A stretch of DNA of 64,000 nt, from positions 2,112,001 to 2,176,000 of the forward strand of contig OZ253555.1 in assembly GCA_965262725.1 (NCBI GenBank). Reading direction: 5' to 3'. Source of the stretch: Dehalococcoidia bacterium. GTDB taxonomy: Bacteria > Chloroflexota > Dehalococcoidia > UBA2979. This document shows positions 2,484-19,139 of the stretch, in pieces. The notes beneath the pieces were generated by a model. The model was not told the origin of the DNA. It saw nothing but the letters and a program-made list of their open reading frames with translations, and made no database searches. Numbering within the stretch: position 1 is the stretch's first letter; every line of letters starts with the position of its first letter. The position numbers were made by a program, and so were the translations under genes.

Positions 2484-3593
2484 GTGCGCTTCAGCTACTA
2501 CCTGAACCCGCAGACCCCCGGTCCCGATGACGACGAACGCGTCCTCGACGAGGTCTTCGGGCAGCTGGAGCTCGCCCAGTCGATGGGCTTCACCGACGCC
2601 TGGATCACCGAGCACCATTTCACTGGCTACAACGTCTACTCCGACCCGACCACGATGGCCGCCGCGGTCAGCCAGCGCGTCCCCGGGATGCGGATCGGCT
2701 TCGCCGTGGCGGTCGTGGCGCTCACGCACCCGATCCGCTTCGTGACCCAGTGCAACCTCCTCGACCAGCTCACGAAGGGGAAGCTGATCGTCGGGATCGG
2801 CTCCGGAAACGCTCCGGATGAGTACGACGGCTACGGGCTGGACCGTGAAGAGCGGTACGAGATCATGCGCGAGTTCCTCGAGGTGTGCGACCTCGCGTGG
2901 GAGCCGCCCAGCCCGGAGGGCTTCGAGCATCACGGCAAGTACTTCGACGTGGAGGTGCGCGGGCGGATCATCCCCGCCCCCATCCAGAGGCCGCGCCCGC
3001 ACATGGCGGTCGCGACGGGGACTCCCGAGCGGCTGGAGATGGCGGGCCGGCGGGGATGGTCTCTGCTCCTGGGGCCGCAGGACGTCGAGTTCATCGCGGC
3101 GCGCCTGCAGTACTACTTCAAGGGAATGGACGACGTCGGGCTCGATCAGGAGGCGCGGGCACGAGCCTGGCAGCACACGAGCCTCGTCCGTCAGCTTTAT
3201 GTCGCCGAGGATGGCGAGAACTGGCTGGAGGAACTGGACGACGTGCTCGACACGTACACGCGCAAGAGCCTGCGGGCGAACACGGGCATCGACGACCTCC
3301 CGAAGGCCGACATGGCGAAGCGCCGCTCGGAGTATCTGAAGCACGGGTGGCTGCACGCCGGCACCGCCGACGAGGTCTTCGAGCGGCTGCGGCCGTTCGC
3401 GGAGCTCGGCGTCAACAACCTGATGTGCTGGTTCAACTTCGGGCACATGGAGGACGAGCGCATCCGCGCCTCGATGACGCGCTTCCGCGAGCGAGTCATC
3501 CCGCGGCTCCAGGAGATCACGCCCAGGGAGGATCTGCTGCCGGCGCTGATCGAGGTGAACAGGGGGCTGGCGACCGTCGCCTCGATTCCCTGA
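2484..3593 (+). CDS. LLM-class flavin-dependent oxidoreductase (luciferase-like)
   Basis: GFTDAWITEHHF, HPIRFVTQCNLLDQLTKGKLIVGIGSG, PIQRPRP motifs. Confidence 0.9.
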   Translation: MRFSYYLNPQTPGPDDDERVLDEVFGQLELAQSMGFTDAWITEHHFTGYNVYSDPTTMAAAVSQRVPGMRIGFAVAVVALTHPIRFVTQCNLLDQLTKGKLIVGIGSGNAPDEYDGYGLDREERYEIMREFLEVCDLAWEPPSPEGFEHHGKYFDVEVRGRIIPAPIQRPRPHMAVATGTPERLEMAGRRGWSLLLGPQDVEFIAARLQYYFKGMDDVGLDQEARARAWQHTSLVRQLYVAEDGENWLEELDDVLDTYTRKSLRANTGIDDLPKADMAKRRSEYLKHGWLHAGTADEVFERLRPFAELGVNNLMCWFNFGHMEDERIRASMTRFRERVIPRLQEITPREDLLPALIEVNRGLATVASIP

Positions 3594-4981: not shown

Positions 4982-5077
4982 TGTCGATCGCCAGGGTCAT
5001 TGATCCACGCGTCGCCACGGTCATTAGACCACCCGGGACGCCGGTAGGCGGCTTGATATCAGTGAGCGTCTAGCGCG

Positions 5078-5851
5078 TCAATCACCTCCCGTCTGCGCCT
5101 CGAGCAGGGCGCGGTGCGGCGAGAGCCGCTGGCGGTAGCTATCGCCCTCGATCACGATCTGGTAGCTGGCGTTGGCGAGGCGGTCGAGGGCGCTGTTGCC
5201 GAGGATCGGGTCGTCGAAGAGACCCAGCCATTCCTCCACGGCGCGGTTCGAGGTGATGACGAAGCTGGAGCTGCGGTGGCGCCCGATGACCAGCTCGTAG
5301 AGGTCGATGGACTGCTGCGCGCTGAGGCGATGGAGCCCGAGGTCGTCGAGGATGAGCAGGTCGGGCGCGAGGAAGCTTCGAAAGACCTTCTCGGCCGAGT
5401 GGTCGACGCGGGCCTGCGCCATCTCGCGGAAGTAGTGGTCGGCCGGGGCGAAGCGCACGCTGCGTCCGGAGCGGACGGCTGAGTAGCCGAGCGCCTGGGC
5501 TAAGAAGCTCTTGCCGACGCCGACGGGGCCGACGAGCAGGACGTGCTCGCGGCGGTCGAGGAAGTGCAGCGAGAAGGCGGCGTCGAGCAGGCGGCGGTCG
5601 AGCCGGATGGCGGCCGCCCAGTCGAAGTCCTCGAGGCGGCAGAGCTGCTCGAAGCCGGCCTGGCGCAGGCGCAGCTCCAACCGCCCGTGGTCGCGGCGGC
5701 TCACCTCGTCGACGAGGAGGATCTGCAGGAAGTCCGCGTAGTCGAGGTGGTCGCGCCGCGCGAGGGCGATGCGCTCGGGCAGGGTGTCGAGCATACGGCC
5801 GAGCTTGAGGCGCTTGAGCAGCGGGCGGAGGTCTGAGGTGGTGGCGGTCAT
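5078..5851 (-). CDS. istB: IS21 helper ATPase IstB
   Basis: Walker A GPVGVGKS, LLILDDLG, ITSNR, ALDRL; ATGA overlap with istA stop. Confidence 0.95.
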   Translation of the reverse strand: MTATTSDLRPLLKRLKLGRMLDTLPERIALARRDHLDYADFLQILLVDEVSRRDHGRLELRLRQAGFEQLCRLEDFDWAAAIRLDRRLLDAAFSLHFLDRREHVLLVGPVGVGKSFLAQALGYSAVRSGRSVRFAPADHYFREMAQARVDHSAEKVFRSFLAPDLLILDDLGLHRLSAQQSIDLYELVIGRHRSSSFVITSNRAVEEWLGLFDDPILGNSALDRLANASYQIVIEGDSYRQRLSPHRALLEAQTGGD

Positions 5852-8830: not shown

Positions 8831-10267
8831 ATGGACTTTGAGAAATACGACCTAGATCCGTCGATCTACGACGAGATGCTGCTCCCGGACGGCACGCACC
8901 GCGATCATTGCCGGGAGGTCGGTGCGGCTCTGCGCGATCTCTCGGTCGCGGAACTCGGCGTCATCCAGGAGCGGGTCACGCGGACGTTCTCCACCGAGGG
9001 CATCACCTTCACCGTGTACGGTGACGACGAGGCCGACGAGCGGATCATTCCCGTTGACTGCGTGCCGCGCGTCATCTCGGGCTCCGACTGGCAGCACGTC
9101 GAGACGGGCCTGACGCAGCGCCTGAAGGCGATCAACCTCTTCCTGGCGGACGTCTACGGCGAGGGCCGGATCGTCGAGGACGGTGTCATTCCCGTGGACG
9201 TGGTGCGCGGGTGCCCGCAGTACAGGCTGCAGATGCGCGGTGTCTCCCCGCCGCACGGCACGTGGGTCGCCATCTGTGGCACCGACATCGTCCGCACCAA
9301 CGAGGGCTTCCACGTTCTTGAGGACAATTTGCGCGTTCCCTCGGGCGTCTCGTACATGATCGCGAACCGGAAGGCGGTCAAGGCGAGCCTGCGCCGCCTC
9401 TTCCGCAGGTCCCGCGTGCGGGGGGTCGAGCACTACGGAAGCATGTTGCGGGAGACACTCCGGGAGATCGCGCCGGAGGGCCGCTCCGACCCGGCGATCG
9501 CCCTCCTGACTCCCGGCGTGTACAACTCCGCCTTCTACGAGCACATGTTTCTCGCGCGCGAGCTCGGTGCCGACCTGGTCGAGGGACGTGACCTGCTCGT
9601 CCACAACGGTTTCGTGTATGCACGTACCACCAAGGGTCTGCATCGCATCGACGTGATCTACCGGCGCGTGGAGGATGACTTCCTCGACCCGCTCGCCTTC
9701 CGCCCCGACTCCTTGCTCGGCGTGCCCGGCCTGATGCACGCGTACCGGCTTGGCAACGTGACCCTGGCGAACGCACCCGGGACGGGTGTCGCCGACGACA
9801 AGAGCGTGTACGCCTACGTGCCCGACATGATCCGGTACTACCTGGCCGAGGAGCCGCTGCTGCAGAACGTCGAGACCTACCTCTGTCGTCGCCCGGAGGA
9901 TCTCGAGTACACGCTCGACAATCTCGACAAGCTCGTCGTGAAGCGCGTCGGGGGCTCGGGCGGATACGGCATGCTGGTGGGGCCCCACGCCACCCCCGAG
10001 GAACGCGACCGGTACGCTGCAGAGGTGCGTGAGCACCCGGCCGACTTCGTATCGCAGCCGACGCTCGCGCTCTCGCGCTCTCCCTGCTTCGTGGATGGCC
10101 GCCTCGAGCCGCGCCACGTCGACCTTCGCCCGTTTGTCCTCCACGGCCGCACGACCAGGCTCGTGCCGGGCGCCTTCTGTCGCGTGGCGCTCAGGCGAGG
10201 CAGCCTCGTCGTCAACTCGAGCCAGGGTGGCGGCTGCAAGGACCTCTGGGTGCTGGACAATTGCTAG
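8831..10267 (+). CDS. Circularly permuted type 2 ATP-grasp protein
   Basis: EGITFTVY, VLEDNLRVPSGVSYM, DVIYRRVEDDFLDPL, GSGGYGML, RHVDLRPF, VVNSSQGGGCKD. Confidence 0.95.
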   Translation: MDFEKYDLDPSIYDEMLLPDGTHRDHCREVGAALRDLSVAELGVIQERVTRTFSTEGITFTVYGDDEADERIIPVDCVPRVISGSDWQHVETGLTQRLKAINLFLADVYGEGRIVEDGVIPVDVVRGCPQYRLQMRGVSPPHGTWVAICGTDIVRTNEGFHVLEDNLRVPSGVSYMIANRKAVKASLRRLFRRSRVRGVEHYGSMLRETLREIAPEGRSDPAIALLTPGVYNSAFYEHMFLARELGADLVEGRDLLVHNGFVYARTTKGLHRIDVIYRRVEDDFLDPLAFRPDSLLGVPGLMHAYRLGNVTLANAPGTGVADDKSVYAYVPDMIRYYLAEEPLLQNVETYLCRRPEDLEYTLDNLDKLVVKRVGGSGGYGMLVGPHATPEERDRYAAEVREHPADFVSQPTLALSRSPCFVDGRLEPRHVDLRPFVLHGRTTRLVPGAFCRVALRRGSLVVNSSQGGGCKDLWVLDNC

Positions 10268-13720: not shown

Positions 13721-16008
13721 CTACTCGGAAGGCGGCGGCGCGGGCGGGACCTCGATCTCGCCGCTGCGGAACCAGACGCCTTGCGGTAGTTCGGCCGGCA
13801 GCAACACGTGCGTCGGCGTGACGGCGTTGCCGTTGGCGTCGCGGAAGCCGAGCTCGATGCGCCCATCGGACAGGCGCCGTGCGCGAATCGTCCCGATCGC
13901 GCTCTCGTTCACCTCGACATCGCTGCTGACGTACCACTGGTCAACGGCGGTATCCACCGGCAGGAAGCGGACAGACGGCAAGACTTGCTGGCCGCTGGCG
14001 AGTTCCACGGCGTGCTCGACGCGGCCGTCCTCGCCCAGCCGGGCGAGGATGCGCAGCGCGTATGGCGATGGCGGTGGCGGTTCCGTCGCCGCGGGCAGTT
14101 CGGGCGCGATGAGCTGGTTGAGCTCTTGGCTACCGCCGAGCCCCAGGCGTCTGAGGAACCGGGAGTTCACCGCATCGACGCCCGCCGCCGTGCAGAGCGT
14201 CGCGTCGGTCGCCAGGCCGTGGGTCGGCAGCGCCGCGCGGAGCTCCGCGTCGAGCTCGAGCAGCCCGTCGCCGTTCTCCACACCAGCCGCTATGAGGGCA
14301 TCGCCGAGCGACGCGTCGCGGCAGGAGGCCATCCGCGCGAGGTCGGCGACCATCGCGCTGACCACGGGATCCTGCCATCCCATCTCGGCGTCGCGGGCGG
14401 CCCGCACGATCTCTCCGGCCGTGATTGCCGGCGCGAGGACGCGCTCGGCGTAGGCGAGCTCGGACTGGAGCGCGAACGCCTCCGCGAAGGAGAGCGCCTC
14501 GCCGTCCGCGACCCGCTCCTGGAGCGCCCTCCAGGAGGCGGCCAACGACCCGTACCGCGCTGCCGCCGTCTCGGCCGTCCCGAGGGTCAGATCCTCGACG
14601 GCGACAGGGCTGATTGCCTCGCCCGAGGCCAGCGCTTCGACCAGCCCGGATCCTGCGATCGCGCTCGCGTACTGCTCCGCGATCGCCCTGGTCAGGGTGG
14701 TCGACGAAGCGTTCTCGAGGCCAGCGGACATCGGCTCGGCCGCGATCGGCAGCGCACCGAGGACCGACTGCTCGAAGATGCCGTCGAGCACCAGGGAGCG
14801 CACGCCTGCCGCGTAGATGGCTCTGGCCCGCAGTGCCTCGTCGATGTCCGCCCCGGGATCGGCGAGCGATGTCACGGAGGTCGTGACGAGCCCCTCTTCG
14901 TCGGCTGAGGCCGTGACCTCGTAGGCCGCACCGTCAACGGTGGCGGCGACCGGGCCGAAGGTCGGGCCGCCCAGCACCATCAGGTTCCGCCAGATGCCGT
15001 GGAACGCGATCTCCTCGCCGGCTTCGTCGAAAGCGATGACCGCGACGAACACCCACGAAGGGCCGGGTTCGCTGAGTGTGACCGCAAACGGCGCCACCCT
15101 GGCGGTCGCGATACTCGTCGCGCTCGCTGTCTGAGCGCCGGAATGATAGGAGACGCCTGCCCGCCACAGCTCCGGCGTCGCGATGATCCGCTCGAACACA
15201 CGAGGCGCCACCACGTACAACACGACGTTGCCGGCGGCGTCAGACAGGTCGCCGCCGCCCGGATTGCCGGTGCGGTAGTGAACGGCGAAGGGCTCGCCCG
15301 CGACCACCTCGTCGGGGGCGTGGGTCGCCTCGATCTTGAGCTGGAAGCGGCCCTGCCGCGCCTCCTCATCCACCAGGTGGACCACGAGGTCGAAGTCAGC
15401 CGTCAGAGGCTGGAGGTCGCGCTGCAGATACGTCGTCGCCTCGATCAGGTAGATACCCGCCGCCAGGTATTGTTCGATGCGTGAGTTGCGGCGGCCGCCA
15501 CCGTCGTCGTTGGCGCCGATGAAGTTCCCATCGGACGAGGCCAGAGAGAGGACCGGGTCGCCGTCGACCGACGTCAGGTCGATGAGCACGCGACCCTCGT
15601 GCGGCAGGTTGAAGGAGTAGGCATAGGCGGGGTGTTCCGCGACCACGCGTGAGCCGCACGTGTCGATCGTCCAGGTGCCGGATGCAGTGAGGTCGATACC
15701 CGGCTCGAGTGTGCCCAGATGTGCCGGCTCGCAACCGGTGACGTGCTCAACGGAAAGCCTGAAGTCCGCCGCGCCGCGTCCGCGTCCGCCGACCGTCGTG
15801 GCCTCGACGAGGTAGATGCCCGCCGCCAGCTCGCGCTCGATGCGCGCGTTGAGGTTGGCGCCGCCGTCGTCGTTGTCCGTGATGCGGGTCCCGTCCTCAT
15901 TCAGGAGGTAGAGGTAGGAATCACCGTCGGTCGACCTCAGGTCGATTCTGATCCGGTCACCCTCGGCGAGTTGGAATCGGTACGTGTGCGCATCGCTGTC
16001 AATGCGAA
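13721..16008 (-). pseudogene. Large secreted protein with two PPC (pre-peptidase C-terminal) domains; 3' part, disrupted by IS1595 element
   Basis: DSYLYLL...DNDDGG..LNARIERELAAGIYLVEATT repeated twice; joins in frame to 19140-19373 (…DCDSRFRI|DSDAHTYRF…). Confidence 0.85.
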
Positions 16009-16069
16009 GGGGACTATATACAATGATGCCCCGGAGTGATAGAATAGGAGTGAAGCGAGGGGAGGGGCA

Positions 16070-17017
16070 ATGGCACGGAAGGCACCGGGACAGCACCGGC
16101 GCGCGGGGATCACCTACGTCTCCCTGGCCAAGATGTTCCCCGACGATGCCGCCGCGGAGAGCTGGTTCGTCGAGGAGCGCTGGCCGAACGGCGTTGCCTG
16201 CCCCAACGACGGCTCACTCAACGTGTTTGCCGGCTCCAAGCACAAGACCATGCCCATGCGCTGCCGCGACTGCCGGAAGCGCTTCAGCGTCCGCACCGGC
16301 ACCGTCATGGAGTCCTCCAACCTCGGCTACCAGACCTGGGCGATCGCCATCTACCTGCTCACCACGTCGCTCAAGGGCGTCTCTTCGATGAAGTTGCACC
16401 GGGATCTCGGCATCACGCAGAAGAGCGCGTGGCACCTGGCCCACCGCATCCGCGAGTCCTTCGATTCGTACGGCGCCGGCTCACCGCTCGACGGCCCGGT
16501 CGAGGTCGACGAGACGTTCGTGGGCGGCCTCGAGAAGAACAAGCACGAGCACAAGCGCCAGCACCAGCGTGGTGGCCCTGCGGGCAAGGCCCCTGTCCTC
16601 GGGATCAGGGACCGCACGAGCGGCGAGGTTCGCGCCCGCGCCGTCTCGCAGACGGACGGCGACACACTGCGCGGATTCGTCCGTGAGAACACCCGTCCGG
16701 GGTCGCAGGTCTACTCGGACGGCCACAGCGCCTACGTCCCGCTTGAGGGCGAGTACAAGCACGACGCCGTCCAGCACTCGGTTGGGACGTACGTGATCGG
16801 GGATGCCCACACCAACGGTATCGAGAGCTTCTGGTCGATGCTGAAGCGCGGCTACGTCGGGACGTATCACTTCATGAGTCCGAAGCACCTCGACCGTTAC
16901 GTGCGGGAGTTCTCAGGCCGTCACAACCAGCGCCCGCTCGACACGATCGACCAGATGCGGGCGGTCTGGCGCGGCATGGTGGGGCGAAGGTTGCGCTACG
17001 ACGAACTCACGGGGTAG
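16070..17017 (+). CDS. IS1595 family transposase
   Basis: Zn ribbon (CPND...CRDC), HTH (SSMKLHRDLGITQKSAW), GPVEVDETFVGG, VYSDG, HTNGIESFWSMLKR. Confidence 0.95.
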   Translation: MARKAPGQHRRAGITYVSLAKMFPDDAAAESWFVEERWPNGVACPNDGSLNVFAGSKHKTMPMRCRDCRKRFSVRTGTVMESSNLGYQTWAIAIYLLTTSLKGVSSMKLHRDLGITQKSAWHLAHRIRESFDSYGAGSPLDGPVEVDETFVGGLEKNKHEHKRQHQRGGPAGKAPVLGIRDRTSGEVRARAVSQTDGDTLRGFVRENTRPGSQVYSDGHSAYVPLEGEYKHDAVQHSVGTYVIGDAHTNGIESFWSMLKRGYVGTYHFMSPKHLDRYVREFSGRHNQRPLDTIDQMRAVWRGMVGRRLRYDELTG

Positions 17018-17033
17018 GAGTTACACAAAATAG

Positions 17034-17276
17034 CTAGGGGGCGGTCCATATCCGTAACAGCATCATCGTTGCCATCACGATGGTCGTGATCGAAGGGACC
17101 GCGACGGCGACCACCAGCCAGCGCGCCATGCTGAACTGACCCTCGATGTTTGCGATTTTGGTCGTTAGTGCTCCCTCGGTTTTGGCAAGGGCAGTTTGCG
17201 TCGCGAAGTAACGGCGGACCTCATCGGCGGCGATATAGCCCATGGCTTTGCCGTTGCCGTCCGGCGCGTCTGTCAT
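17034..17276 (-). CDS. Small coiled-coil protein with C-terminal TM helix (cargo)
   Basis: FATQTALAKTEGALTTKIANIEG then ARWLVVAVAVPSITTIVMATMMLL; ATGA overlap with upstream ORF. Confidence 0.65.
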   Translation of the reverse strand: MTDAPDGNGKAMGYIAADEVRRYFATQTALAKTEGALTTKIANIEGQFSMARWLVVAVAVPSITTIVMATMMLLRIWTAP

Positions 17277-17551
17277 ACCCGGACTCCTTCGATCGCGCGC
17301 AGCCACGCCCATATGCGTGTCCAAGTAGAGCCAGCGATCGGAGCCCTTACGTTTAGGACAAGCACAGGCGATCCGTTGCCTAGACGTGCAACTACATCAG
17401 CGACTTCTAGGTCGTCACCGTGGACGAAGAACACATCATCCGTGAACCGGATGTGGTCATCACCGGGGAATGCCTGAGCGATCTGCTCCCGGATCTGCTG
17501 GTTTGCGTCGGACTCATCATCGTGTAGAAGCACCACATAGGAGTTGATCAT
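17273..17551 (-). CDS. Small hypothetical protein, possible Cas2/VapD-like ferredoxin fold (cargo)
   Basis: 92 aa, MINSYVVLLHDD...IREQI...DVFFV...VLVLNV...WAWL; RBS GAGAG and TGCTACAAT promoter upstream; fold assignment is inference. Confidence 0.6.
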   Translation of the reverse strand: MINSYVVLLHDDESDANQQIREQIAQAFPGDDHIRFTDDVFFVHGDDLEVADVVARLGNGSPVLVLNVRAPIAGSTWTRIWAWLRAIEGVRV

Positions 17552-17705
17552 GGTCGCTCTCTCTTGGTTAGGCACGAGCATTCTCCCTGTGCCGCGGTGC
17601 GGGCGGGATTGTAGCAGGCGCCGTACCCCGCGACGACACCGATCACGCGCCTCAATCGATCCGAAGCGCTGCGCGAGTGTGCGGATGCGCATTCTGCACC
17701 ACGAT

Positions 17706-18161
17706 CTACCGCCAGCCGAGGAGGTCAGAGCATTCCGCCGACTGAGTACCGAAATCCAACTCCCCGCCGCCGTTGTAGTAAGAGGCAGCGTACAGACCGA
17801 CCTGCTCCGCTGCCCCTCTCGTGTAGGTGCCTTCCGACACTACCTGGGCGATCCCGCCGCTGACAGCGGTGATCGACAGTCGATAGCCGGTCCCCTGCTC
17901 GAAGCACGAGCCGTACAGCTCGGCACCCTCGGATGGCACGGCGACCTGCACGACGGTGTCGATGCCGGTGACGGTGACGGACTCGACGGGATTGGCGACG
18001 GTCACGGTCTCGACCGGGTTCGCGATGGTCACCGTGTCGACCGGGTTTGCCACCGTGACCGTCTTGTCCATGACAGACACAAGGATCATCCCCGTCAGGG
18101 CCAACTGGACCGCAACTGCCAGAGCAGCGAGCCCGAACAATATGCTTCTGGCTGTCGGCAT
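17706..18161 (-). CDS. Secreted/membrane-anchored protein with 9-aa tandem repeats (cargo)
   Basis: N-terminal hydrophobic helix; (TVTVANPVD)(TVTIANPVE)(TVTVANPVE)(SVTVTGID); RBS GAGGAGG. Confidence 0.75.
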   Translation of the reverse strand: MPTARSILFGLAALAVAVQLALTGMILVSVMDKTVTVANPVDTVTIANPVETVTVANPVESVTVTGIDTVVQVAVPSEGAELYGSCFEQGTGYRLSITAVSGGIAQVVSEGTYTRGAAEQVGLYAASYYNGGGELDFGTQSAECSDLLGWR

Positions 18162-18195
18162 GGGAGCCTCCTCGCGGAGCAGTCGGGAGTTGACC

Positions 18196-18293
18196 GCTCT
18201 GGGCAGAAGGGCCACACCAGCACCATCCCGCGAGAAGGCACGAGGTCCTCCCGGGCTGCTGAACGGCACGGGTGTTGCGGCTCTGCCCAGAGC
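18196..18293 (-). ncRNA. Putative structured RNA leader, copy A
   Basis: 13-bp closing stem GCTCTGGGCAGAG/TTCTGCCCAGAGC, two nested stems with G-U pairs, apical TCGTGCC; homologous to copy B. Confidence 0.65.
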
Positions 18294-18321
18294 TCGCCGG
18301 TAGCCTTGGCGGTGTGCCCGC

Positions 18322-18378
18322 CGTTTGTCAAGGCGGCGACGCCGCCATTGGACAAACGCCCTAGACGACCGCTAATCT
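18322..18378. promoter_or_regulatory. Divergent promoter region with palindrome GTTTGTC-AA-GGCGGCG-A-CGCCGCC-ATT-GGACAAAC
   Basis: TTGACA on minus strand; TGGACA...TAATCT on plus strand; lies between the two RNA leaders. Confidence 0.55.
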
Positions 18379-18389
18379 GCCCTCCGTAA

Positions 18390-18488
18390 GCTCTCCGCAA
18401 AGAGCTCGGACACCGGCGCGAACGAAAGCGAGCAGGGGCCTTCGTGCCTCCTTGCGGCTCGTGTCGGTGCGGCCCCTTTGCGGAGAGC
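18390..18488 (+). ncRNA. Putative structured RNA leader, copy B
   Basis: Perfect 13-bp stem GCTCTCCGCAAAG/CTTTGCGGAGAGC, nested CACCGGCGCGA/TCGTGTCGGTG, apical TCGTGCC. Confidence 0.65.
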
Positions 18489-18565
18489 GGTCTACCCCGC
18501 TTGCGCCGCAAGGGGGCTCCACGTGACCCCTCCCGGCTGCGCGCTGCCGACGCCCGCGAAGGAAG

Positions 18566-18748
18566 GTGATTCAAATGGAAGTGCTCCTGATTCTCGCGGT
18601 CTTGTGGGGGCTGCCCGTGGTGATCATCGGACTGATGGCCGACAGCCGCGGCCGCTCGCTGGCGTGGGTGATCTGGCCGCTTATGCTCGGCTGGATCGGC
18701 TGGGTTGTCGCCTTCCTGGCGCTGGTGAACCAGCCGAAGACGAAGTAG
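18566..18748 (+). CDS. Small two-TM membrane protein (cargo)
   Basis: MEVLLILAVLWGLPVVIIGLMADSRGRSLAWVIWPLMLGWIGWVVAFLAL; RBS AAGGAAGGTGA. Confidence 0.75.
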   Translation: MIQMEVLLILAVLWGLPVVIIGLMADSRGRSLAWVIWPLMLGWIGWVVAFLALVNQPKTK

Positions 18749-18839
18749 GTCGCGCCCCCACAGGTTTACGCTGACGCTCACTGGACAACCGCCATGGGGG
18801 ACGCCACACTTTCTGAGTGAAGGGCGGGAGGAGCACCCC

Positions 18840-18965
18840 ATGGGTAACGAGAAGGATCTGCGGATTCCGACGACGCCGAAGGAGCTGGCGAAGGCGATTC
18901 TGAGCACGCCTCCGAAGCGCCGCTATCCACGGGGAGCACCACCACCCGCTTCCGTCACCAGGTAG
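18840..18965 (+). CDS. 41-aa small protein (cargo)
   Basis: MGNEKDLRIPTTPKELAKAILSTPPKRRYPRGAPPPASVTR with GGAGGAG RBS; below ORF-track cutoff. Confidence 0.5.
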   Translation: MGNEKDLRIPTTPKELAKAILSTPPKRRYPRGAPPPASVTR

Positions 18966-18969
18966 GAGG

Positions 18970-19046
18970 TGGCGCCGGGGAAGGGTCTCGAACCCTCGTC
19001 TTCCCGATTAACAATCGGGCGCTCTCACCTACTGAGCTACCCCGGC
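18970..19046 (-). tRNA. tRNA-Asn (GTT), CCA encoded, inside the transposon
   Basis: GCCGGGG TA GCTC AGTAGGTGA GAGC G CCCGA TTGTTAA TCGGG AAGAC GAGGG TTCGAGA CCCTT CCCCGGC G CCA; full cloverleaf, 77 nt. Confidence 0.9.
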
Positions 19047-19139
19047 ACCATCAGCGGGTCGCCTCCATCCCATGTGGGGGCGACCCCTCCTACCTTACTC
19101 CTCTCGGCCGGTCCCGGGGCACTACCCTATATACTCCCC

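Follow-up and report, generated by a model that had tools for sequence, protein, structure and literature searches.

Insertion sequences (IS) of the IS1595 family can carry passengers, and passenger-bearing members of the ISNwi1 subgroup are present in ISfinder. Passenger-carrying IS1595 elements have one zinc-ribbon DDE transposase, GGnnATTAT-like terminal inverted repeats (IRs), an 8-bp target-site duplication (TSD) and 1-4 kb of additional genes separating the transposase from the right IR. Here we describe an element with all of these properties in a Dehalococcoidia bacterium (assembly GCA_965262725.1, contig OZ253555.1, positions 2,112,001-2,176,000; coordinates below are positions in this 64,000-nt stretch, which we call the window). 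Its recurrent cargo comprises a conserved small second open reading frame (ORF), here named o5, a tRNA or tRNA-like gene placed tail-to-tail with it, and a structured leader RNA, three features that the titles and abstracts searched do not mention. At the level of titles and abstracts, a search that did not take in the original description of the family, we found no published report of tRNA-carrying IS1595 elements.

The RNA components also have relatives among described systems. Sequestration of the Shine-Dalgarno (SD) sequence is used by preQ1-II, SAM-II, RNA thermometers and type I toxin mRNAs that fold back, and the leader resembles these in that an anti-SD segment would pair with the ribosome-binding site, with a local partner available as a weaker alternative. 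It differs from them in having no Rfam match and no conserved pocket, in carrying its anti-SD in the apical loop of a covarying hairpin of ~25 bp, and in its presumed targets, which are unrelated exported proteins. The tRNA gene, like those of phages, integrative and conjugative elements and plasmids, duplicates a host isoacceptor with a differing sequence (54 of 79 aligned columns identical). Unlike those tRNAs, its carrier is a 3-kb DDE transposon, its position is fixed relative to a small ORF, and its relatives alter or lose the anticodon half while retaining the acceptor and T-arm half. In several IS-borne copies nothing but the acceptor stem, T arm and CCA is left, similar to the tRNA-like domain of transfer-messenger RNA (tmRNA) and to viral tRNA-like structures, but unlike tmRNA they are ~70 nt long and have no mRNA-like part or tag frame. 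None of them reaches the gathering score of the tmRNA model (47), so these copies are not tmRNA genes.

We read the locus as a mobile IS1595 transposon with recurrent cargo blocks, in which the leader would act as a translational lock and the tRNA or tRNA-like gene would be kept as an RNA element, and we give this reading as a whole a probability of about 0.6. What is new is the pairing of o5 with a tRNA as a module, the leader RNA, and a tRNA that is not of host type.

Boundaries, insertion site and relatives of the transposon

The ends of the element and its transposase are as follows.

16001-16008, no strand: left copy of the TSD (AATGCGAA), from sequence reading
16009-16034, plus strand: left terminal IR, also the site of the region's only two sigma-70-like promoter matches
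16070-17017, plus strand: IS1595-family DDE transposase, 315 aa, with an N-terminal zinc ribbon, from Pfam
19114-19139, minus strand: right terminal IR, from sequence reading and the IR-pair search
19140-19147, no strand: right copy of the TSD, from the sequence, contigs and in-silico excision

Positions 16009-19139 form a single intact IS1595-family transposon of 3,131 bp. Aligned with the right end in reverse complement, the left end is identical at 20 of 26 positions; both begin with GGGGA.TATATA and finish with TGCCCCGG, and the 8-bp direct repeat AATGCGAA stands on either side. The transposase matched PF12762 (DDE_Tnp_IS1595) at 1.6e-39 and 135.8 bits (cut-off 27) and PF12760 (Zn_ribbon_IS1595) at 1.3e-05 and 25.5 bits (cut-off 25.4), which together with the terminal IRs and the 8-bp target duplication places it in the IS1595 family. 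Contigs from run X1 of study P1 and run X5 of study P2 read through both junctions with 0 differences. In contrast, contigs from X6 (P3) and X7 (P4) connect 15999 to 19139 and so skip 3139 bases, equal to the 3131 of the element plus the 8 of one repeat; 9 letters at this join can be assigned to either side. These contigs refute an assembly artefact or chimeric join at the borders, to which we give practically no chance. Because exact empty-site contigs exist, the entire unit, tRNA included, is an insertion polymorphism in natural populations. The X6 and X7 contigs also have an extra 5-base insertion (CCAAA) at window position 19381, so their source is a strain population related to, but distinct from, that of the window.

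When the element and one repeat copy were excised in silico, a single 837-aa frame was restored on the minus strand, reading from the Met of the 19373 fragment and containing a PPC domain (2.2e-10). The insertion is recent, and the DDE transposase carried all 3,131 bp together into a gene whose product is a secreted PPC-domain protein. The first-pass annotation had proposed an IS1595 cargo transposon with 26-bp imperfect IRs, an 8-bp TSD and a host ORF restored in frame on excision, and had named misassembly at the junctions as one finding that would count against it. The assignment and the restored frame both hold, the empty site supports movement of the passengers with the transposase, and no misassembly was found at either junction.

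For relatives, one genome per species was scanned, which gave 590 confirmed transposase relatives, and the best 80 loci (56-69% identity) were kept; these come from metagenome-assembled genomes (MAGs) of Chloroflexota, Binatia, Acidobacteriota and Proteobacteria. A scripted search for IRs and flanking repeats found IR pairs matching at at least 19 of 24 positions, with a common GGG..TTATAT core, in 64 of the 80 loci, and by the script's output 49 of those 64 have a perfect 8-bp TSD. Adding the window element and a cousin in the same genome (L002) gave 66 elements, 46 of them distinct at 90% identity. All but one of the distinct elements (45/46) exceed 1.5 kb, with a median of 2,924 bp, so passengers are the rule in this clade. 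The GGnnATTAT-like ends, the 8-bp repeat and a length within ~1.7-4.8 kb fit the ISNwi1 subgroup, to which the element may belong; plasmid annotations give the gene as 'IS1595 family transposase' and no subgroup.

One Terriglobia MAG holds eight copies of a single 2,342-bp element with identical IRs (L049-L054, L059 and L060). Several of these have perfect TSDs at AT-rich sites, and some pairs lie 4.8-5.2 kb apart and look nested or tandem. This is an actively transposing cargo element with no tRNA.

The second core gene o5 and its tRNA partner

At the right end of the window element, three features lie together.

18840-18965, plus strand: o5, 41 aa, core DLRIP..P.ELA.A.L, from a hidden Markov model (HMM) of the clade's small ORF family
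18970-19046, minus strand: tRNA-Asn(GUU) with G1-C72, G73, an encoded CCA and a 9-nt D-loop, from ARAGORN and Rfam
18960-18976 and 19079-19095 (span 18960-19095), no strand: 17-nt inverted repeat bracketing the tRNA gene, 88% complementary

Weak BLAST matches to o5 occur in many of the related elements, and the HMM matched 30 of the 46 distinct ones, commonly at the final ORF ahead of the right IR. In the o5 core, column entropy is lowest at codon position 2 (0.36), intermediate at position 1 (0.80) and highest at position 3 (1.44), a pattern typical of coding sequence; conservation of this segment as an RNA on the opposite strand was considered and is ruled out by the same values. A profile search returned 149 database proteins; relatives among the 120 listed are 33-104 aa long, none with a Pfam domain or an informative name, and o5 itself has no Pfam or NCBIfam match. 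A complex prediction for the transposase and o5, whose controls were not folded, scored 0.00 and speaks neither for nor against a contact. Judged by this conservation, o5 is a second core gene of the IS1595 clade rather than variable cargo. The first-pass annotation had looked for variable small ORFs in the relatives; the exported proteins behind the leaders described below do vary, and o5 does not count among them.

A full tRNA-Asn had been annotated in the cargo at first pass and was recovered here by ARAGORN (Asn GTT) and by Rfam (RF00005, 71.4 bits, E 8.5e-15, gathering threshold 29). The gene and o5 stand tail-to-tail, with 4 nt from the tRNA 3′ end to the o5 stop. The host's own tRNA-Asn, to which it aligns at the identity given above, has U1-A72 and an 8-nt D-loop. 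In the phage collection, the sole collection searched, the element's tRNA-Asn shares 80-83% identity with haloarchaeal virus tRNA-Asn genes. Derivation from a tRNA-Asp with an altered anticodon was considered and rejected, as the host tRNA-Asp is outside its eight nearest host tRNAs.

Related elements carry such genes recurrently. ARAGORN called tRNAs in 8 of the 66 elements, or 6 of the 46 distinct ones, and Rfam scores within the family range from 39 to 71 bits (61.8 for L015, 52.1 for L082, 48.4 for L009, 48.2 for L025 and 38.9 for L072). A T-arm pattern matched 19 times in the 66 elements, against about one match in shuffled sequences (0-3 per shuffle, 20 shuffles); the matches in L036 and L041 were discarded as they have no acceptor or CCA context. 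Altogether a tRNA or tRNA-like gene is found in 11 of the 46 distinct elements. The tRNA-like genes retain the acceptor stem, T arm and CCA while the lower half is aberrant. L009 has an 8-nt anticodon loop, and L062 (27 bits), L027 (31 bits) and L063 match the tmRNA clan only. The tail-to-tail arrangement with o5 recurs at 8 loci (7 distinct) in Chloroflexota and Alphaproteobacteria, with gaps of -44 to +78 nt, and the leader/gene/o5/tRNA unit occurs in both orientations relative to the transposase. A recurrent tRNA had been suggested at first pass as a check, and it is found, as part of a conserved tail-to-tail o5/tRNA module and not as free cargo.

The source genome alone has three element lineages with a tRNA or tRNA-like gene: the window element; L002/L003, a 2.4-kb element in two copies with 72% nucleotide identity in the transposase gene and a tRNA-like remnant; and L112, a truncated element with a tRNA-Phe-like gene of 69.1 bits. 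The L112 gene and the host tRNA-Cys share 77% identity and agree in acceptor, U73 and T arm; the anticodon arm of the L112 gene is of Phe type. Elsewhere in the source genome, ARAGORN placed a tRNA-Pro(TGG) on one strand and a tRNA-Gln(TTG) on the other strand of a single 90-base stretch (G000:C1:1817760-1817851), one of which is probably a mirror-image false call, and a tRNA-SeC is located at 747136-747232.

The leader RNA and the genes behind it

The middle of the element holds two divergent leaders with their ORFs, for which the GC content at third codon positions (GC3) is given.

18159-18296, minus strand: leader A, the 5′ leader of o3, from the covariance model (CM); anti-SD 18228-18239, SD region 18166-18177, ATG 18159-18161
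18387-18525, plus strand: leader B, from the CM (125.8 and 110.1 bits); anti-SD 18446-18457, SD region 18506-18517
18322-18358, no strand: imperfect palindrome between the divergent leaders, which may be an operator or promoter, from the sequence, with TTGACA on the minus strand
17034-17276, minus strand: o1, ~80 aa, with a C-terminal hydrophobic segment (tail anchor); ORF, GC3 0.77
17273-17554, minus strand: o2, a 93-aa soluble orphan; ORF, GC3 0.61
17706-18161, minus strand: o3, 151 aa, membrane-anchored; ORF, GC3 0.82
18575-18748, plus strand: o4, 57 aa, with two hydrophobic segments and an alternative GTG at 18566; ORF, GC3 0.91

Leader A scored 139.1 and 117.9 bits (R1/R2) with the CM. 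Leader B stands in an inverted-repeat relation to it, and both are homologous to a region of L002. Each is an RNA of ~135 nt with a two-helix (P1/P2) hairpin of ~25 bp, the apical loop of which carries an anti-SD predicted to pair over ~12 bp with the SD. Rfam, run at E<=1 over 15500-19700, matched the tRNA alone, and the leader has no Rfam 15 family. The CM found six copies in the source genome and matched six related loci from other Chloroflexota MAGs; it was positive in 10 of 101 relatives' genomes and in 5 of 151 genomes sampled across the phylum, both counts including the source genome.

Support for the fold comes from 25 aligned leader hits: the proportion of paired cells is 94.6%, and it falls to 40-49% with slid partners. 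Changes on both sides are seen in all 13 P1 pairs and all 12 P2 pairs, and none of 500 shuffles reached the observed values. In the anti-SD/SD pseudoknot, 6 of the 9 main-helix pairs covary and 94.7% of cells pair, and the predicted duplex energy is -18 to -26 kcal/mol, compared with -3 to -16 for the local loop alternative. Since G-U pairs are common, the fold belongs to the sense strand. The two homologous structured leaders of the first-pass annotation were thus borne out by homology, the CM and covariation. The divergent promoter it had placed between them is unverified: a consensus scan for promoters and terminators flagged nothing between the leaders, where there is just the imperfect palindrome, and gave promoter-like sites in the left IR only.

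In most leader hits the downstream ORF starts 5-7 nt past the SD. Their products are unrelated proteins that carry a hydrophobic or lipoprotein-type segment at the N terminus, so that a recurrent motif ahead of variable ORFs, which had been suggested as a check, is indeed found, preceding differing exported proteins in the relatives. Among ten leader-linked proteins there was no usable Pfam or NCBIfam family, save leucine-rich repeats (LRRs) in one protein outside IS elements (LRR_1, 1.3e-48). A transposase gene lies within 1.5 kb at 8 of the 15 newly found leader loci; in a wider family set, a transposase is within ~5 kb at 6 leader loci and at none of 6 others. As many leader loci have no transposase nearby, the leader is better described as a lineage-wide regulator adopted by transposons than as an IS-specific part.

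Three known kinds of element were compared with the leader. As with riboswitches, an SD-occluding expression platform is present, but the alignment shows no conserved ligand pocket: conservation is limited to the anti-SD, the SD and a short loop, and the internal loops vary in sequence and length, which argues against a metabolite pocket. We think that the leader is probably not a metabolite riboswitch. An attC-like DNA site, an imperfect hairpin with R''/R' core sites at cassette 3′ ends, was rejected given the hairpin base (GCTC...GAGC), the dependence on sense-strand G-U pairs and the tie to the SD and start codon; no integrase was found among the neighbouring ORFs. For a type I toxin-antitoxin system, o4 behind leader B, with its 57 aa and two hydrophobic segments, offers a comparison, but most leader-linked proteins are 110-580 aa long and fit a type I toxin poorly.

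The five small ORFs first annotated in the cargo (o1-o5) are all present. The o1 ATG overlaps the o2 stop (ATGA), from which translational coupling is predicted. Three 27-nt tandem repeats in o3 (window 17967-18047) encode 9-aa VTVANPV.T units, and the C terminus forms a conserved ~90-aa domain that contains two Cys. At E<=1e-10, o3 has 19 relatives; the repeat number varies, since relatives carry 1-7 such units. An AlphaFold2 model of o3 has a predicted local distance difference test score (pLDDT) of 77 overall and >90 for the C-terminal domain, and gave no PDB match at E<=0.001 (best 0.11, with template-modelling scores <0.3). The GC3 of o4 is 0.91 against 0.46 for an overlapping competing frame; that of o5 is 0.71. 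A word-index search of 5.8 billion proteins with o2 returned only itself, and the Atlas gave no lead at or above 0.9. None of the cargo ORFs has a Pfam or NCBIfam family.

Other leader copies were seen outside the window element. A fifth, stranded copy (L089, G000:C1:2094001-2100000, ~2975-3100, minus strand; 86-95 bits) lies 15 kb upstream of the window in an IS junkyard, between an IS110-type C-terminal fragment and a 510-aa IS4-like ORF (labels read off the translations), with no credible ORF downstream. At L128 (G042:C3:3116500-3131000), leaders at 5020-5142 and 9333-9455 lie outside IS1595, before long Thr/Pro-rich exported proteins, one of which is the secreted LRR protein mentioned above; a tRNA-His call (93 nt) is found 300 nt upstream of the first of these leaders. 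Leader-linked exported proteins at L035 (5926-7332, minus strand) and L019 (5938-6672, minus strand) have a common repeated domain of ~90 aa with no Pfam match and the core ...VEVRVWQ...ISARPEGG.... In L103 (G002:C104:3740-6861), an IR-like end is found at 1402 and a leader at 1501-1622, just outside a ~1.35-kb element with a minus-strand o5; either the true right end is further along or this leader is chromosomal.

Competing explanations and significance

In the reading we favour, the cargo is made up of recurrent blocks. One block is o5, a second core gene and usually the last before the right IR, and another is the tRNA or tRNA-like gene tail-to-tail with it. In Dehalococcoidia relatives, a third is the leader, with its anti-SD loop predicted to pair with the ribosome-binding site of the next gene, which in every case encodes a different exported or membrane-anchored protein. 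The window element has two back-to-back leader units, leader A/o3/o2/o1 and leader B/o4/o5. Translation behind a leader would be off by default and opened by some cue or factor, and the envelope proteins would be exchangeable accessory cargo. Because the anticodon half drifts while the acceptor/T-arm half and the synteny are kept, the main reason for keeping the tRNA or tRNA-like gene would be a role as an RNA element tied to the o5 operon, perhaps in 3′-end formation, processing or antisense interplay, rather than the supply of a scarce tRNA.

Several points weigh against this reading. The tRNA or tRNA-like gene is limited to those 11 of 46 distinct elements, is away from o5 in 4 of 12 measured loci, and looks degenerate in several copies, for which the slow decay of a hitchhiker fits as well. 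The tRNA-Asn of the window element (71 bits) and the tRNA-Phe-like gene in L112 (69 bits) both fold as clean cloverleaves, so a decoding role is possible for them. Leader B is separated from the o4 start by 50 nt and may for that reason not gate o4 canonically. The alignments used for covariation were fitted to the model, and thus favour structure, and there are only ~20 independent leaders, all from one phylum. Since o1, o2 and o4 have no relatives, the case for their reality comes from GC3 and gene layout. Transcripts, promoters, tRNA maturation and leader function are all inferred from the DNA.

If the tRNA, leaders and small ORFs were instead chance pick-ups from earlier insertion sites, role-less and decaying, one would expect what is seen for o1-o4, which have no homologues among the 66 related elements, with o2 an orphan altogether. 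The non-canonical tRNAs point the same way (the loop of L009, the tmRNA-clan-only matches of L062, L027 and L063, and the remnant in L002), as does the minority of elements with a tRNA or tRNA-like gene. However, neutral hitchhiking does not account for the recurrence of the o5/tRNA synteny across two phyla, the excess of T-arm matches over shuffles, the intact stems of the window tRNA or the coding signature of o5. The compensatory changes in every P1 and P2 pair require purifying selection on the leader structure, and we consider hitchhiking unlikely. The first-pass annotation had proposed a compact defence, counter-defence or addiction module. Such a module could, for example, consist of phage-excluding membrane proteins, a tRNA replacing one cut by an anticodon nuclease, or an o2/o1 toxin-antitoxin pair. 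The empty site shows that the module is mobile and strain-variable, the small membrane or exported proteins change fast in sequence behind a tight predicted translational lock, o2 and o1 appear translationally coupled, and the acceptor and D-loop of the tRNA are not those of the host copy; phage tRNAs that evade host nucleases behave similarly. Against it, no cargo ORF fell below E 0.01 in PADLOC or PHROGs (the best PADLOC-DB 2.0 E-values, 0.043 and 0.018, are weak single hits that do not make a defence system), no nuclease, toxin or NTPase domain is present, and the leader outside IS elements at L128 precedes a secreted LRR protein, pointing to surface or host interaction rather than immunity. 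The searches left the proposed role without a match, and we regard it as quite improbable.

A further explanation gives the tRNA a role in altering decoding. The tRNA(GUU) would receive Asp from an aspartyl-tRNA synthetase (AspRS) of the non-discriminating type and evade GatCAB, placing Asp at Asn codons, or it would titrate the enzymes, and further IS-borne tRNAs whose body and anticodon do not match would act similarly. In the source genome no asnS candidate exceeds the cut-off (best 109 bits vs 342.6) and gatB is present (540.8 bits), and the L112 tRNA-Phe-like gene, with its tRNA-Cys-like body and U73, would be a second case. The element tRNA, with G1-C72 and one extra D-loop base, departs from the canonical tRNA-Asn of the GatCAB route, which has U1-A72 and a D-loop with no extra base, as given by Bailly et al. 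2006 (PMC1635274). They report that U1-A72 promotes amidation by a bacterial amidotransferase, that a tRNA-Asn variant with G1-C72 and an added D-loop base is not amidated by it, and that an archaeal tRNA-Asn is aspartylated by a bacterial enzyme but not amidated by a bacterial one, all of which favours this explanation. However, the extra D-loop base is a G here and was a U in the variant described there (PMC1635274). The genome is 91.55% complete by markers, so an asnS may have been missed, and drift would explain the degenerate copies elsewhere just as well. Asp-tRNA-Asn is discriminated against by elongation factor Tu. Expression and charging of the tRNA are assumptions of this explanation, and the host enzymes are uncharacterised. 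On the widest form of this explanation, a transposon spreads functional, identity-shifted tRNAs as the tRNA and tRNA-like genes of the clade, in this case an archaeal-type tRNA(GUU) putting Asp at Asn codons in a host that appears to have no asparaginyl-tRNA synthetase; we think this highly improbable. If true, it would mean transposon-borne, regulated mistranslation, with a sister element in the same genome carrying a Cys-bodied tRNA with a Phe anticodon. It is biochemically testable, using the G1-C72 tRNA-Asn with a bacterial non-discriminating AspRS and GatCAB.

Retention as an RNA element beside o5, with the leader as a predicted translational lock, remains our preferred reading of the locus. 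IS-sized DDE transposons can carry RNA genes and RNA regulators beyond protein-coding passengers, and IS-borne tRNAs can inflate or distort tRNA counts in MAGs. A small ORF and a tRNA-like gene in a fixed tail-to-tail layout across phyla hint at an unrecognised accessory module of IS1595. We know of almost no experimental RNA biology in Dehalococcoidia, and the leader gives this class a well-supported candidate structured RNA, absent from Rfam 15, that is proposed to gate the translation of exported proteins.

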